A stretch of DNA of 64,000 nt from Erythrobacter sp. (GTDB taxonomy: Bacteria; Pseudomonadota; Alphaproteobacteria; Sphingomonadales; Sphingomonadaceae): contig JAHEBH010000002.1 of the NCBI GenBank assembly GCA_024642335.1, positions 6,647-70,646 of the forward strand. Direction: 5' to 3'. Of the stretch, positions 29,995 through 35,717 are shown one piece after another; positions within the stretch are counted from its first letter, which is position 1; the number at the start of each line of letters is the position of its first letter. The notes under the pieces were generated by a model. It worked only from the letters and a program-made list of their open reading frames with translations. It made no database searches and had not been told where the DNA came from. Position numbers and translations under genes: made by a program.

Positions 29995-31026
29995 TTAGTC
30001 CTGAACTGCCAATCCATGCTTCTTGATGCAATGGCGCAGCTGATCATAGGACAGGCCCAGCGACTTTGCCGTCTGGCGCTGGTTCCAGCGGTTGGCCCCT
30101 AAGGCATACTCTACGATGGCGCGTTCATGCGCATCGACCGCAACCCGCAGATCGTCGACATTCGAGAAGTCGCTTTCGACCGGAGCAGGATTCGCAACGG
30201 TATCCTTTGCGGACGCAGGGCGCGGTGCCTCCGGGACCGTGGCGATCGGCTTCCATGGCGAATCGAACGGGTCAAACACCGCATGCGCAATGGGCCGGGA
30301 CCAATCATCCCAACGATAGACCGCGCGTTCCACCACATTGCGCAATTCTCGCACATTGCCCGGCCAGGGATGGTTCTCGAGCGCCTCGGCAATGTGGGTG
30401 GCATAGCCGGGCCACTCCTCCCAGCCCAGTTCGGCAGCCATGCGCCGCCCGAAATAGTCCGCCAGAACCGCTATATCGCCTTCGCGCACGCGCAAGGGCG
30501 GCAGGGTAATCACCTCGAAACTCAGCCGGTCGAGCAAGTCGGCACGAAAGCGCCCTTCCTTGGCCAGTTTCGGCAAATTCTCGTTGGTCGCCGCGACGAT
30601 GCGAACATCGACGCGTGTAGGACGGGATGAGCCGATGCGCGTTACCTCGCCATATTCGACAGCGCGCAACAGGCGTTCCTGCGCGCCCATGGACAGCGTA
30701 CCCAGCTCATCGAGGAACAGCGTGCCCCTGTCCGCTTCCTCGAAACGACCTTCGCGCACTTTGGTGGCGCCGGTGAAAGCACCTGCTTCATGGCCGAACA
30801 GCTCGGCTTCGATCAGCGTTTCGGGCAGGGCGGCACAATTCATGATGACCAGCGGTTCCTCCCACCGGTCGGACAAGCGATGGAGGCGTTCTGCAATCAG
30901 TTCCTTGCCCGTTCCGCGCTCGCCGACCACCAGGACGGGGCGACGCATGGGCGCGGCGCGGCTGGCGCGTTCGACCGCATCGAGGAAGGCGCCCGACTGG
31001 CCGATGAACTGGTTCTCGCGCTCCAT
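29995..31026 (-). CDS. pspF: Sigma54-dependent activator PspF
   Basis: GERGTGKE, GAFTGA, LFLDE, DLLDRLS, WPGNVREL, C-terminal HTH; no N-terminal regulatory domain; divergent from pspA. Confidence 0.93.
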   Translation of the reverse strand: MERENQFIGQSGAFLDAVERASRAAPMRRPVLVVGERGTGKELIAERLHRLSDRWEEPLVIMNCAALPETLIEAELFGHEAGAFTGATKVREGRFEEADRGTLFLDELGTLSMGAQERLLRAVEYGEVTRIGSSRPTRVDVRIVAATNENLPKLAKEGRFRADLLDRLSFEVITLPPLRVREGDIAVLADYFGRRMAAELGWEEWPGYATHIAEALENHPWPGNVRELRNVVERAVYRWDDWSRPIAHAVFDPFDSPWKPIATVPEAPRPASAKDTVANPAPVESDFSNVDDLRVAVDAHERAIVEYALGANRWNQRQTAKSLGLSYDQLRHCIKKHGLAVQD

Positions 31027-31036
31027 GGCCAAGATA

Positions 31037-31071
31037 TAGTGAAAAACGCCAAGGTTTGGCAACAGTCACTA
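31037..31071. promoter_or_regulatory. Putative PspF upstream activating sequence
   Basis: Dyad TAGTGAAAAACGCCAA-ggt-TTGGCAACAGTCACTA, similar to the recalled enterobacterial psp UAS. Confidence 0.7.
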
Positions 31072-31126
31072 CGTGTGCAACGCAGGGTTATGCACAACAT
31101 GCTGGTTTTTCGTAGGAAATTGGATT

Positions 31127-31142
31127 TGGCACGCGCCTTGCA
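31127..31142 (+). promoter_or_regulatory. Sigma54 -24/-12 promoter of the psp operon
   Basis: TGGCAC-GCGCC-TTGCA, exact consensus spacing. Confidence 0.9.
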
Positions 31143-31176
31143 ATGTTTGGTGTAACCAATGTTTGAGGAGGAACGC

Positions 31177-31329
31177 ATGTTCGATCAGAGCTATTTTGCC
31201 AGCAAATCCGGCCTTGCCGCGCTGGTGAGCGTTGCGGCCATGATCGCTTTCAACCTCTATGCGCTCTCGCTGCAGAACGGTACAGCCGATCTGGTGCTTG
31301 CGGCTGTTCCGATGGTGGAACTGGCGTGA
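31177..31329 (+). CDS. 50-aa hydrophobic protein, first gene of the psp operon
   Basis: Not in the ORF track. GAGGAGGA RBS; MFDQSYFASKSGLAALVSVAAMIAFNLYALSLQNGTADLVLAAVPMVELA; stop overlaps GTG at 31326. Confidence 0.75.
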   Translation: MFDQSYFASKSGLAALVSVAAMIAFNLYALSLQNGTADLVLAAVPMVELA

Positions 31330-32156
31330 GCCGCGAGAACGAAAACCCCTTGACGCCGGTTGGGCTGAGCCGGAGCACGTCGGACTCCTCGCGGATAGAC
31401 CGCGAGATAGAACGGCTGCGTACGAGCCCCACCCCGACCAGCAATTCGCTTATTGCCGGAGGAGCCTGGATGGGCATTTTTTCGCGTACAAGAGACATCA
31501 TCGCCGCCAACTTCAACGAGCTGCTGGACCAGGCCGATGACCCCGCCAAGATGATCCGCATGATCATTCTGGAGATGGAGGAAACGCTGGTCGAAGTTCG
31601 AGCCAGCGCCGCCCGCACCATTGCTGACCAGAAGGAAATGCACCGTCACATGGTGAAGCTGGACAAGCTCCAGTCAGACTGGTCGGAGAAGGCCCAGCTT
31701 GCCTTGTCGAAGGATCGTGAAGACCTCGCCCGTGCCGCTCTGATGGAAAAGCGCAAGGCTGGCGACATGGCCGATCAGCTGAAACAGGAGATCACCGTGC
31801 TCGACGACGCGCTGCGCGCCTATGAGCAGGACATCGCCAAGCTGCAGCATCGCCTGCGCGAAGCCCGCAGCCGCCAGAGCCAGATCGCAGCACGGCTGGA
31901 AAGCGCGGAGAACCGCTACAAGCTGCGCAGCCTGATGACCAACGAGCGGGTGGACGATGCCCTGAGCCGCTTCGATCAGCTCGAGCGCCGCGTCGATTAT
32001 GCCGAAGGCCGCGCCGATGCACTGGGCATATCCGGCAACCCGCCCAGCCTGGCAGACGAGTTCGCCGCGCTGGAGGGCTCCGACAGGGTCAACGAGGAAC
32101 TCGAGGAAATGAAGCGCGCCCTGGGTTTGGGCAATGACGAGAAGAAGGAGGATTAA
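31326..32156 (+). CDS. pspA: Phage shock protein A (alternative start at 31470)
   Basis: MGIFSRTRDIIAANFNELLDQADDPAKMIRMII.EMEETLVEVR, LARAAL, long coiled coil. Confidence 0.93.
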   Translation: MSRENENPLTPVGLSRSTSDSSRIDREIERLRTSPTPTSNSLIAGGAWMGIFSRTRDIIAANFNELLDQADDPAKMIRMIILEMEETLVEVRASAARTIADQKEMHRHMVKLDKLQSDWSEKAQLALSKDREDLARAALMEKRKAGDMADQLKQEITVLDDALRAYEQDIAKLQHRLREARSRQSQIAARLESAENRYKLRSLMTNERVDDALSRFDQLERRVDYAEGRADALGISGNPPSLADEFAALEGSDRVNEELEEMKRALGLGNDEKKED

Positions 32157-32159
32157 CCC

Positions 32160-32456
32160 GTGGAAGAGATCATTATTTTGCCGATGATATTTGTCGGGCT
32201 TCCCTGGCTGATCCTGCACTATGTCACCAAATGGAAGACTGCCGCCGGCATCACCACTGACGATGAAGCGCTGCTGGAGGAACTCTACCAGCTGGCCCGG
32301 CGTCTGGACGAGCGGATGGACACGGTCGAACGGCTGGTCTCCTCCGACAATCCGGACTTCAAGACCGCGCGCATCATGCATGACAAGGAAATCGACAATA
32401 CGCCGCTGCATGAACTGGAGCAGCTGCTGGCCGAAAAGAAGGGAGCCCGCAAGTGA
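32160..32456 (+). CDS. pspB: Phage shock protein B
   Basis: TM IFVGLPWLILHY, then L..ARRLDERMDTVERLV. Confidence 0.88.
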   Translation: MEEIIILPMIFVGLPWLILHYVTKWKTAAGITTDDEALLEELYQLARRLDERMDTVERLVSSDNPDFKTARIMHDKEIDNTPLHELEQLLAEKKGARK

Positions 32457-32827
32457 ACTCGCCTCGTACCACACTCTATCGCGACAAGCAGAATGCGAAG
32501 ATGCTGGGCGTCTGCGCGGGCATTGCGGACTACACCGGCATCAATGCCTTCTGGGTCCGCCTTGCGGCCCTGATGCTGATCCCGATGACCGGCTTTGTCG
32601 TTCCGCTCTATTTCATCGCCGGTGTGCTTTTGAACAAGAAGCCTGCTGAGCTTTATGGCGATGAGCAGCAAGATAAATACTGGCAGGGCGTGCGCCAGTC
32701 CCCCAAGCGGACGACGCGCGAAATCCGTGCCCGCTTCCGCGACATCGACCGCCGTCTGGCCGGCGTGGAACACCACTATGTCACCAATAATCAGCGCCTC
32801 TCGGCCGAAATAGAGCGCCTGCGCTGA
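32453..32827 (+). CDS. pspC: Phage shock protein C
   Basis: LYRDKQNAKMLGVCAGIADYTG..WVRL, TM, C-terminal YVTNNQRLSAEIERLR. Confidence 0.9.
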   Translation: MNSPRTTLYRDKQNAKMLGVCAGIADYTGINAFWVRLAALMLIPMTGFVVPLYFIAGVLLNKKPAELYGDEQQDKYWQGVRQSPKRTTREIRARFRDIDRRLAGVEHHYVTNNQRLSAEIERLR

Positions 32828-32861
32828 CCAACACAGACACACATATCTGGGGGAAGATTAC

Positions 32862-33191
32862 ATGGGTGAGTTCATACCTATAATTGCGATCATCATGGGG
32901 TGCACAATCCCGATGGTGGCGATCTGGTCAAAGCACAAGGAAAGGGTCGCAGCGATGGACCGCGGCATCATCCTGGATGACAGGGGCAGGCCGGTCGGAG
33001 CTGCAAACAGCAACGCCGCAATTGAATCCGAGGTGAAGGAACTGCGCGAGCGCGTGAAAGTGCTCGAACGCATCGTTACCGACGGCGGATACAACCTCGC
33101 CAATGAGATCGAGGCGCTGCGCGACGCTCGTACAGATCACGATCAGGGCGCGGGCGTTCCGCTCAATGTTTCCAGCAGGGAGAGGGCGTGA
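32862..33191 (+). CDS. Psp-associated TM plus coiled-coil protein, paralogue 1
   Basis: N-terminal TM; LRERVKVLERIVTDGGYNLANEIEALR. Confidence 0.8.
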   Translation: MGEFIPIIAIIMGCTIPMVAIWSKHKERVAAMDRGIILDDRGRPVGAANSNAAIESEVKELRERVKVLERIVTDGGYNLANEIEALRDARTDHDQGAGVPLNVSSRERA

Positions 33192-33532
33192 TGGACCCGA
33201 CCCTTGCCATTATCCTCGATTACATTCCGCTGGTCATTGGTGGTGCCGTGGCCATCTCTCTCGCCGGTGTCTGGGCATCGGTTCACAACACCAAGCTCAA
33301 GATCAAGAACGGCTACCCGCTGGAAGGCATGTGGGGCCAGTCTCTCAAGCCGGATGTGTCGAGCGAAGGCATGGAGCGCGTAAAAATGCTGACGCAGGAG
33401 AATGCAGCGCTTCGTGCTGAGGTCTCGGCGATGAAAGAACGCATGGCCAATGTCGAACGCATCGTGACCGACAGCGGCTTCCAGCTGACACACCAGATCG
33501 ACCGGTTGCGGGACAGGGAAGAGGTGAACTGA
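33188..33532 (+). CDS. Psp-associated TM plus coiled-coil protein, paralogue 2
   Basis: N-terminal TM; MKERMANVERIVTDSGFQLTHQIDRLR; GTGA overlap with the previous gene. Confidence 0.8.
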   Translation: MMDPTLAIILDYIPLVIGGAVAISLAGVWASVHNTKLKIKNGYPLEGMWGQSLKPDVSSEGMERVKMLTQENAALRAEVSAMKERMANVERIVTDSGFQLTHQIDRLRDREEVN

Positions 33533-33831
33533 TGGATCTCGAGTTTGTATTCGGGCTGGTCACAGCAATCGCCATTGTCGCAATCGTGATGGGTACCATC
33601 GGCGGCATCGTGAAAAGCGCCATTCGCCTGAGGGAAAAAAGGCTGGAACTAAATGCCAAGCCGGCCCAGCCCGATGCCGCACCGCTGCTGGCCAAGGTCA
33701 ACCAGATGGAAGACCGTATCCGGGTGCTGGAAAGCATCGCCAGCGATAGCGGCGTCAGGTTGGCGCATGAAATCGAGTCCCTGCGTTTGACGGCCAATGT
33801 GCCGCAAAAGGGGAAGGAGGAAGTGGAGTGA
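33532..33831 (+). CDS. Psp-associated TM plus coiled-coil protein, paralogue 3
   Basis: N-terminal TM; MEDRIRVLESIASDSGVRLAHEIESLR. Confidence 0.8.
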   Translation: MDLEFVFGLVTAIAIVAIVMGTIGGIVKSAIRLREKRLELNAKPAQPDAAPLLAKVNQMEDRIRVLESIASDSGVRLAHEIESLRLTANVPQKGKEEVE

Positions 33832-34085
33832 GTATCGGTACTGCCTTGGTCGTTATCGTGGCGATCATGGTACTGGGAAGCGTCTTTCGCAGTCGTCACC
33901 ATGCCTCGCTGGGTATGGGAACCGACCAGCACGGCAATCCCGTCGGATCGACGCAACGTGAACGTGAACTTGAAGCAGAGATAGCTGAACTGCGCGATCG
34001 CGTGCATGTCCTTGAACGCATCGCCACCGAAGAAACTGACACAAAGCGCCTGTCGGCCGAAATCGACAAGCTGCGCGACGAATAG
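33828..34085 (+). CDS. Psp-associated TM plus coiled-coil protein, paralogue 4
   Basis: N-terminal TM; LRDRVHVLERIATEETDTKRLSAEIDKLR. Confidence 0.8.
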   Translation: MSIGTALVVIVAIMVLGSVFRSRHHASLGMGTDQHGNPVGSTQRERELEAEIAELRDRVHVLERIATEETDTKRLSAEIDKLRDE

Positions 34086-34095
34086 GGGAAAGGGT

Positions 34096-34335
34096 ATGTT
34101 GAGCGTAGAATTGCTGATTGCCGCCTGTTCGCTGCTGGGCCTGATGATACTGGCCGCGGCAGTCCTGAAGGGATGGCAGGGTTGGCTGGAACTCAAGGAA
34201 CGCGAACTGCAGCTGCGAGGCGGCCCGATGGAAATCGAAGGCGGCGCGCGCGAAGGTGCGGCACGGATCGAGATTTCCGACCTCAAGGAACGCATCCGCA
34301 AGCTGGAAGCAATCGCAAGCGGGGTGGACCTCTAG
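34096..34335 (+). CDS. Psp-associated TM plus coiled-coil protein, paralogue 5
   Basis: N-terminal TM; LKERIRKLEAIASGVDL, lacking the terminal EI..LR helix. Confidence 0.78.
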   Translation: MLSVELLIAACSLLGLMILAAAVLKGWQGWLELKERELQLRGGPMEIEGGAREGAARIEISDLKERIRKLEAIASGVDL

Positions 34336-34359
34336 GCGAAACGCATTAGATGCGCTGAC

Positions 34360-34767
34360 ATGCGCAGCATTGATGACATCCTTGAAGAATATGAATTCCT
34401 CGAAGGCGATGAACGCTATCGCCTGTTGATCGAGCTGGGGCGCGAACTGGACGAGATGCCCCAGCCGCTCAAGACCGACGCCACGCTGGTGCGCGGCTGC
34501 TCTGCCCAGGTCTGGGTCTACCCCACCGGCGATGCCGCCCAGCTGCATTTCCTGGCAGACAGCAATGCCGCGATTACCAAGGGCATTGTCGCGCTGGTGA
34601 TTTCCGCAGTGCAGGACAGGCCCGCGGAAGAAGTCGCCGCAATGGACGTGACGGGGGCGCTTGCTCCCTTCGACCTCAGGAACCAGCTGTCCTCCAACCG
34701 TACGCAGGGCGTGCCCAACATGATCGCGCTGGTGAAAGAACACGCCGCGCGCATTGCGCAGGGCTGA
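34360..34767 (+). CDS. sufE: SufE family protein
   Basis: RYRLLIELGREL, VRGCSAQVW, ADSNAAITKG, LSSNRTQG. Confidence 0.92.
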   Translation: MRSIDDILEEYEFLEGDERYRLLIELGRELDEMPQPLKTDATLVRGCSAQVWVYPTGDAAQLHFLADSNAAITKGIVALVISAVQDRPAEEVAAMDVTGALAPFDLRNQLSSNRTQGVPNMIALVKEHAARIAQG

Positions 34768-34771
34768 GGCG

Positions 34772-35119
34772 ATGCGGCCGCTGTGGGTGGCGGCAGGCCT
34801 GCTGTTCGTGGGCCTTGGCACGGTGGGAGCCTTCCTGCCGATCCTGCCGACCGTGCCGTTCCTGCTGCTGGCGACATTCTTCTTCGCACGCGGCAATCCG
34901 GCCTGGGAGCAGCGCCTGCTCAACCATCCGCGCTGGGGTCCGCCGCTGGTTGAATGGCGCACCCGCCGCGCCATTTCGCGCCGCGCCAAGATATCCGCAC
35001 TGGCAGCAATGGGCATGGGCGTGCTGGTCACTGCCCTCACCCTCGGCTTTCCGTGGTGGCTGCTGGTACTGGCGATTGTCTCGGTAACCGGCGGCTGGAT
35101 CTGGACGCGGGCGGAGTAG
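34772..35119 (+). CDS. YbaN (DUF454) family membrane protein
   Basis: GLGTVGAFLPILPTVPFLLLA..FFARG.P..EQRLLNHP. Confidence 0.88.
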   Translation: MRPLWVAAGLLFVGLGTVGAFLPILPTVPFLLLATFFFARGNPAWEQRLLNHPRWGPPLVEWRTRRAISRRAKISALAAMGMGVLVTALTLGFPWWLLVLAIVSVTGGWIWTRAE

Positions 35120-35120
35120 T

Positions 35121-35639
35121 TCAGCCCCCGACGCTATCCCGCACCACGGCAATGCCGGCTTGGCGCTGCGCCTTGAGTTCCGCCTTCAGCACTGCCGGAT
35201 CGCGGGCAAAGACGAAGCCGAAGCTCACCCCGCCTTCCTTGCCGACCGTGGCGTGGTGCAGCTTGTGCGCCTGGACCAGCCGCTTGGCATAGCCGCGTTT
35301 GGGCACCCAGCGGAAATAGCGCTGATGCACCAGCCCATCGTGGATCAGCGTGTAGATGATCCCGTAGAAGAGGACGCCGAGGCCAATCCATGTTCCCGGC
35401 CACCAAGCTGAAGAGCCCATGACGAGCGGGCTGCCGATTGCGAACATGGAGATGCTCATCACCGCGCCCACAACGCCATATAGGTCGTTCTTTTCGAACG
35501 TCTTGTCATGCGGCTCGTGATGGTCGCGGTGCCAGCCCCAGCCCCATCCATGCATGATGTATTTGTGGCTCGCCCAGGCAATCCACTCCATCGCCAGCAC
35601 GCTGGCAAGTACGATCAAGGTGGGGGCGAGCCAATCCAT
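35121..35639 (-). CDS. crtZ: Beta-carotene hydroxylase
   Basis: ME..AW..HKYIMHGWGWGWHRDHH, FEKNDLY, HDGLVHQR, QAHKLHH, VSFGF; true start lies inside the longer track ORF. Confidence 0.93.
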   Translation of the reverse strand: MDWLAPTLIVLASVLAMEWIAWASHKYIMHGWGWGWHRDHHEPHDKTFEKNDLYGVVGAVMSISMFAIGSPLVMGSSAWWPGTWIGLGVLFYGIIYTLIHDGLVHQRYFRWVPKRGYAKRLVQAHKLHHATVGKEGGVSFGFVFARDPAVLKAELKAQRQAGIAVVRDSVGG

Positions 35640-35717
35640 AGGCACTAAATAGGGACTTTGGGCGCTGAAAGACAGCCCCCGCTTGATTTGCGGCGTATGC
35701 GGCGTAGATGGCACCCC

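Follow-up and report, generated by a model that had tools for sequence, protein, structure and literature searches.

The stretch of DNA analysed here, called the window below, spans 64 kb of an Erythrobacter sp. genome and carries a psp locus in which pspA, pspB and pspC are followed by five small genes, named X1 to X5 in this text. These five are real genes, beyond chance open reading frames (ORFs), and from their sequences they are very probably paralogues that share the PspB domain. By the curated definitions they stand outside both PspB and PspC, and profile comparison places them as remote homologues of the PspB domain. As the best overall explanation we propose, with moderate confidence, that they are divergent PspB paralogues acting in the membrane PspBC complex. 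The layout of the array is already known, as it was catalogued under the name "PspB duplicates" in Table S3 of Ravi et al. 2024 (mSystems 9:e00847-23, PMC11237479).

An earlier note on the window had described five packed ORFs of 79-114 amino acids (aa) at 32862-34335, each with one N-terminal transmembrane (TM) helix and a shared motif, and this description was confirmed by the ORFs, their alignment and their hydropathy. The motif L/M-x-x-R-x-x-x-L/V-E-x-I was found in all five proteins, with R, E and I invariant in the alignment, and a variable linker separated the N-terminal hydrophobic helix from the helix that carries the motif. A second helix, L..(E/Q)I..LR, was present in X1-X4 only, X5 ending just after the motif helix. 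That four of the ORFs continue into the helix with which PspC ends had been noted before and holds for X1-X4: PspC terminates in this second helix too (RLSAEIERLR), and PspB bears the first one (LDERMDTVERL). Enterobacterial PspB was also found to carry MRERIQALE.IL, as the earlier note had stated for E. coli. In the window, residues 85-124 of PspC (nucleotides (nt) 32705-32824) form a PspB-like leucine-zipper tail.

The databases held 1092 homologues of X2, all of them unnamed except for a few automatic 'DUF2730' labels, the closest coming from Alteraurantiacibacter and other Erythrobacter-type genera. An identity as DUF2730, a label carried by a few UniRef clusters, was rejected: the model had no match to the five window proteins, and it was not among the 25 families hit most often by 53 members of the X family at E<=1. 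Ratios of nonsynonymous to synonymous substitution rates (dN/dS), taken against a same-genus genome, were 0.32 for X1, 0.08 for X2, 0.51 for X3 (best same-genus match), 0.30 for X4 and 0.25 for X5, compared with 0.23 for pspC, all of these values being rough as dS was near saturation. The values of X4 and X5 against locus L075 were disregarded, as that locus is truncated and the comparison is not orthologous. From these ratios, all five genes appear to be under purifying selection. Therefore, the X2 homologues, the range of dN/dS and the conserved synteny described below identify X1-X5 as real genes.

For the comparison of profiles, 152 distinct X proteins, 47 PspB and 47 PspC were taken from loci of the same family and of other Proteobacteria, and were compared with hhalign; reversed profiles and PspA, a long natural coiled coil, served as controls. 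Against PspB, the X profile gave 84-91% over 23-24 columns, including 91% over 23 columns for PspB from outside the family, whereas the reversed profile gave 1-3%. The match to the PspC tail reached 92% over 40 columns, with residues 48-87 of X1 lying on residues 85-124 of PspC and both helices included; with PspC from outside the family it was 83% over 38 columns. Over all controls, reversed profiles gave 1-5% (2-5% for PspC) and PspA gave 1%. Taken group by group, X2 matched the PspC tail at 95.7%, and X4 matched PspB at 72.6% over 52 columns, TM segment included. X1, X2, X4 and a group related to X2, named X2', were mutually related at 97-99.9%, and the link of X5 to the rest of the X groups reached 94% over 22 columns, with a reversed control of 1.5%. 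The likeness of the five ORFs to PspB and PspC that the earlier note had put forward was thus upheld in this test of profile similarity (84-93%, against 1-5% in the controls).

In single-sequence scans of Pfam and NCBIfam, X1-X4 matched the PspB models PF06667 and TIGR02976 with 10-14 bits, below the curated cut-offs (25.6 for Pfam; 51.7 for TIGR02976), and X5 matched no PspB or PspC model. The matches of X1-X4 had E-values of 0.001-0.6, lay at PspB profile positions ~44-67 and PspC positions ~76-121, and were mixed with coiled-coil noise (bZIP, DivIC, ZapB), so they were not decisive alone. When 53 X proteins were tallied against the 18,950 models of NCBIfam, the four models hit most often were two of PspC and two of PspB (31, 23, 15 and 12 members), TIGR02976 being matched by 23 of the 53; in Pfam, PspB was the most-hit family (14 of the 53). 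The best E-values were 8e-4 in Pfam and 1.3e-5 for TIGR02976, all of them short of the cut-offs. Matches to TIGR02978 were confined to profile positions ~76-121, and not one of the 53 proteins matched PF04024, the N-terminal domain of PspC with its membrane hairpin. The PDB sequences, searched with the X profile and PspB as queries, yielded coiled-coil noise only and no solved relative.

Each of X1-X5 has a single N-terminal hydrophobic 17-mer with a mean Kyte-Doolittle value of 2.2-2.7, which is preceded by no K or R and followed by several. All of 157 X proteins had one hydrophobic segment, with its start at residues 1-16, and a mean of 0.05 K+R before the segment and 3.0 in the next 15 residues, the figures for PspB being 0 and 2.4. 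By the positive-inside rule, the segment is predicted to serve as an anchor of N-out/C-in orientation and not to be cleaved as a signal peptide, which would place the whole conserved part of the protein in the cytoplasm. Only 1-15 residues are predicted to lie outside the membrane, with the variable linkers on the cytoplasmic side. An AlphaFold2 model of X2, made with 36 orthologues, consisted of a TM helix at residues 4-40, a loop and one long helix at residues 59-113, with a mean predicted local distance difference test score of 78 and a predicted template modelling score of 0.34; the helix is extended, and the low-confidence loop spans the GYPLEGMWGQ linker.

The X proteins were clustered into orthologous groups by reciprocal BLAST scores, and the groups were found to keep their positions. 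The X1 type was first in 23 of 26 scored loci, the X4 type penultimate in 18 of 20 and the X5 type last in all 26; X2 had exactly one copy in 31 of 31 loci, and X2', present in 17 loci, was placed before X2. X3 fell into no stable orthogroup and occupies a fast-evolving variable slot. The order common to the sphingomonad genera is therefore X1, optional X2', X2, the variable slot, X4 and X5. Each group has a conserved linker of its own, as in X2 (GYPLEGMWG) and X2' (HGYPLEDEWGG); among 37 orthologues of X2, 28 columns were invariant, and its linker was invariant across genera. X5 has the conserved pattern W.GWL.LK...ARIE.ADLKERIRKLEAIA.GVDL. As orthogroups in fixed positions are shared across genera, the duplications predate the radiation of the sphingomonad genera, each copy having been retained since, which argues for non-redundant roles.

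The copy-number survey that the earlier note had suggested was run with a model of the five window proteins, on 120 genomes that represent 112 genera of the family to which the window belongs. Matches were found in 110 of the 120, with one to nine copies per genome and a median of five. Of 300 other genomes sampled from the class, the only ones with matches were two of the same family and two of one other alphaproteobacterial family. Named genomes with the same operon include Sphingomonas, Sphingobium, Novosphingobium, Erythrobacter, Sandarakinorhabdus, Blastomonas, Sphingorhabdus and others, and a Croceibacterium operon carries nine X copies. Every inspected locus of the family that spanned the region had the order pspA-pspB-pspC-[X array]-sufE, and the X copies began less than 400 nt from pspC in the 68 loci of which both ends could be seen. 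Four of the five X-less family genomes tested also lacked PspC, and the fifth had pspA-pspB-pspC and then sufE, which in this genome (G061, locus L079) directly follows pspC after a gap of 57 nt. Since the absence of X leaves sufE behind pspC, the linkage of sufE is to the psp locus and not to the X genes.

Outside the order, one or two X genes came after pspABC in several gammaproteobacterial assemblies (Woeseiaceae and metagenome-assembled genomes (MAGs)). The other alphaproteobacterial family had a single orphan copy in each genome, coding for an X-like protein of 78-83 aa (L040, 1480-1716, plus strand; L041, 1507-1758, minus strand) with unrelated-looking neighbouring ORFs. Both of these genomes had PspC-domain genes and one of them had PspA, all on other contigs; PspA was not found in the other genome, which is 93% complete. 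Orphans remote from psp genes were also seen in Aliikangiella marina, an OM182 MAG and an Emcibacteraceae MAG, and these share an LEERI.VLERIVTD helix with the orphans of that alphaproteobacterial family. A profile search of a global library at E<=0.001 returned 1833 clusters at 50% identity, an upper bound that includes at least one coiled-coil false positive, a repeat protein of 1776 aa. Four metagenomic proteins of 148-163 aa (P0122, P0125, P0126 and P0131) contain two X-type zipper modules each, and may have come about by natural fusion of adjacent genes of the array or by the merging of gene calls.

Several of these results weigh against the assignment of the X proteins to the PspB domain. 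All X proteins stayed below the curated cut-offs of the PspB and PspC models, X5 had no direct hhalign signal to either protein, the homology was confined to 22-40 helical columns, bZIP and ZapB were matched almost as often as PspB in the Pfam tally, and the X profile matched 14 stretches of the unrelated, eukaryote-like repeat protein mentioned above (P0124). Scores below every cut-off in the family libraries, the similar scores of generic zipper families, the coiled-coil noise from the PDB and the match to the repeat protein would also suit small membrane coiled-coil proteins that arose by convergence, share heptad periodicity with PspB and PspC without descending from them, and have some other membrane purpose. 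We consider such a convergence very unlikely, given the distance in hhalign between the X profile and the reversed-profile and PspA controls, and given that the matches of dozens of members coincide in register and in their positions on the PspB and PspC profiles. Moreover, the architecture of a TM segment plus helix and the topology signature are as in PspB, the genes adjoin pspB and pspC, and the independent survey of Ravi et al. (PMC11237479) made the same domain call.

The orphan copies away from psp genes weigh against a role tied to Psp and make a Psp-independent one possible. On that account, a small 'VLERIVTD' membrane protein with a role of its own, linked for example to sufE or to membrane organisation, would have been captured beside pspC in sphingomonads, and both the single orphans in the other alphaproteobacterial family, A. 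marina and the two MAGs and the constant position of sufE after the array speak for it. It has little probability in our judgement, as the copies start so close to pspC in the 68 loci, four of five X-less genomes are also without PspC, sufE keeps its place after pspC where X is missing, and X genes directly follow pspABC in the gammaproteobacterial assemblies too. Another account takes its lead from the strong differences between the linkers of copies that have the zipper helix in common, and from a copy number that varies from one to nine between genomes: the array would consist of partly interchangeable sensors, each linker detecting a different envelope insult and feeding into the release of PspA. 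Detection of more than one outside signal is unlikely, given how little of the X proteins is exposed beyond the membrane, the divergent linkers lying on the K/R-rich cytoplasmic side. The old orthogroups of fixed order, with X2 and X5 in single copy in nearly every locus, fit fixed subunits better than a repertoire in the course of diversifying, and the linker of X2 is invariant across genera. We therefore regard an array of such sensors as quite unlikely, and of the earlier proposal of alternative sensors or adaptors, the multi-input sensing is doubtful and a putative adaptor role in binding PspA or PspC is plausible. The reading of the X proteins as divergent PspB paralogues in the PspBC complex is accordingly the one retained below.

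The features of the locus are listed in Table 1. The gene upstream was assigned to pspF also by its position, which matches the place of PspF in Table S3 of Ravi et al. (PMC11237479). The sigma54 box was the sole match without mismatch within the window. In the genome, pspA of the window was the only PspA, a genome-wide scan with PF06667 found the canonical pspB alone, and no further X-like genes were found beyond the psp locus. Gene callers place the start of X2 at the ATG at 33191, which gives 113 aa, and there is no need for the longer X5 frame from 34006, which overlaps X4. X1 and X2 overlap by 4 nt, X2 and X3 by 1 nt and X3 and X4 by 4 nt, X4 and X5 are separated by 10 nt with a purine-rich stretch, and junctions in more than 60 other loci were mostly of -4 or -1 nt. 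No terminator-like site was predicted on the plus strand across 30900-35200. The earlier claim that these genes extend the psp operon is thus favoured by the only perfect sigma54 box upstream, the lack of a predicted terminator and the coupled junctions, from which we infer co-transcription. A sigma70-like pair, ATTACA-16 nt-TATAAT (10/12), at 32857-32884 on the plus strand, overlaps the start of X1, and was rejected as an internal promoter; sigma70-like hexamer pairs were at chance level in the region (two found, 0.9 expected).

Table 1. Features of the psp locus in the window, with coordinates in the numbering of the window.
Feature	Coordinates	Strand	Length	Characteristics
pspF	29995..31062	-	355 aa	Sigma54 enhancer-binding activator; AAA+ sigma54-interaction sequence and C-terminal helix-turn-helix; divergent from the operon
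Sigma54 -24/-12 box	31127..31141	+		TGGCAC-N5-TTGC; between pspF and the first operon ORF
Hydrophobic ORF at operon head	31177..31329	+	50 aa	From the ORF list; the 'X' before PspA in Table S3 of Ravi et al.
pspA	31470..32156	+		TIGR02977, 280 bits (cut-off 243); PF04012, 128 bits
pspB, canonical	32160..32456	+	98 aa	TIGR02976, 93.7 bits (cut-off 51.7); PF06667, 77 bits
pspC	32453..32827	+	124 aa	TIGR02978, 117 bits (cut-off 104)
X1, putative PspB-like paralogue	32862..33191	+	109 aa	TM residues 5-21, motif helix, second helix
X2, putative PspB-like paralogue	33188..33532	+	114 aa	Invariant GYPLEGMWGQ linker; most conserved copy
X3, putative PspB-like paralogue	33532..33831	+	99 aa	Motif and second helix; fast-evolving variable slot
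X4, putative PspB-like paralogue	33828..34085	+	85 aa	Penultimate-position orthogroup
X5, putative truncated divergent paralogue	34096..34335	+	79 aa	Last gene of the array
sufE	34360..34767	+		PF02657, 114 bits; conserved downstream neighbour

The hydrophobic ORF between the sigma54 box and pspA is apparently a conserved, unnamed first gene of the operon. At the other end, X5 and sufE are separated by 24 nt, and because no terminator is predicted between them, sufE is possibly co-transcribed with the psp operon. In many loci of the Sandarakinorhabdus type or from gammaproteobacteria (L091, L092, L095-L099, L101, L107, L114, L116, L117, L119, L124, L128, L129, L136, L140 and L148), a second, weaker match to the PspC model (56-76 bits) was seen between pspB and the main pspC, which could stand for an additional short gene with a PspC domain or for a split pspC. 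Farther downstream in the window, a long minus-strand frame has in its 3' part, at ~35121-35640, the code for a membrane protein rich in histidine (HDGLVHQRYF..., HKLHH), which from its sequence looks like a carotene hydroxylase of the CrtZ type, and this frame overlaps that of a LeuC-like gene on the plus strand.

The earlier note knew of no description of this layout, a claim that does not stand in view of the table of Ravi et al. The entry there for Erythrobacter litoralis (AOL22920.1; PMC11237479) reads PspF divergent, X, PspA, PspB, PspC+PspB, four SIG+PspB and one PspB, and E. coli PspC is likewise entered as PspC+PspB. The window has the same layout gene for gene, the tail of PspC as a PspB domain included; the taxonomic neighbourhood is the same and nothing essential differs. 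In that work, the layout has one line and one example, without distribution, orthogroups or function, whereas here it was followed through the family and its orthogroups of fixed order were defined. The N-terminal helix labelled 'SIG' there is here predicted to be an N-out/C-in anchor without a positive n-region. Two other surveys did not mention the layout of the X array, and no functional work on Psp in sphingomonads was found in the literature.

Compared with PspB of E. coli and Yersinia enterocolitica, the X proteins have the same size class, N-terminal TM segment, cytoplasmic C-terminus and location in the psp operon, and their leucine-zipper helix is in register with that of PspB (residues 52-75 of X1 to 40-63 of PspB). 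They differ in scoring far under the cut-offs, in the second C-terminal helix of X1-X4, in their lineage-specific linkers and in having several copies per operon besides the canonical PspB. With the C-terminal zipper of PspC (~77-119 in E. coli) they share both helices, over the 40 columns that are their best and longest profile match, but they are without the N-terminal domain of PspC and its hairpin, so that the zipper sits on a PspB-type anchor. In E. coli, the leucine zipper of PspC is needed for the interaction with PspA, and PspB self-associates (PMC3068692). In Yersinia as in E. coli, the tail of PspC is a switch whose partner is either PspB or PspA. According to the work on Yersinia (PMC5596341 and its references 14 and 15), PspB and PspC form a membrane complex, interactions between their cytoplasmic domains silence the system, and PspC, by its C-terminal domain in the cytoplasm, binds PspA in the on state.

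From these comparisons, each X protein would be bitopic, crossing the inner membrane by one TM segment, with a very short N-terminal stretch outside and a leucine-zipper helix in the cytoplasm. The X genes would share a transcript with pspABC, made from the promoter served by PspF and sigma54, and be translationally coupled to them, and the cytoplasmic helices of their products would form coiled coils among themselves or with PspB, the PspC tail or PspA. That the X proteins are coiled-coil subunits of a membrane complex is put forward tentatively, as a possibility that falls a little short of probable. As extra, non-redundant subunits of the PspBC complex, they would set the amount of PspA docked and of PspF freed, and because they would themselves be induced by stress, we propose that they act as feedback on the response. 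Their net effect could be either silencing, as for PspB, or recruitment of PspA, as for the PspC tail.

A more specific and unlikely possibility is that X1, X2, X4 and X5, each retained in single copy and in fixed order from before the sphingomonad radiation, are no spare copies of PspB but obligate, distinct subunits of a defined hetero-oligomeric coiled-coil platform on the cytoplasmic face, which would pattern or nucleate the ESCRT-III-like assemblies of PspA. If this were true, the platform would be a membrane-receptor lattice for PspA without an enterobacterial counterpart, and its simpler ancestors would be represented by the gammaproteobacterial operons with one or two copies and by the orphan 'VLERIVTD' proteins.

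Within the Psp membrane-stress response, PspB and PspC are understood least, and it is still debated how the tail of PspC changes between PspB and PspA as partners. To the catalogued layout, the present analysis adds the distribution across the family, the orthogroups of fixed order, an anchor topology unlike that of a signal peptide, the X-less variant pspABC-sufE, and the operons with one or two copies and the orphans outside Sphingomonadales. Sphingomonads offer, as a natural series, four to six additional copies of the switch helix, each conserved as a distinct orthologue on a PspB-type anchor. This series could serve to map the residues that determine the choice of partner, and to ask whether the docking of PspA needs a defined membrane receptor.

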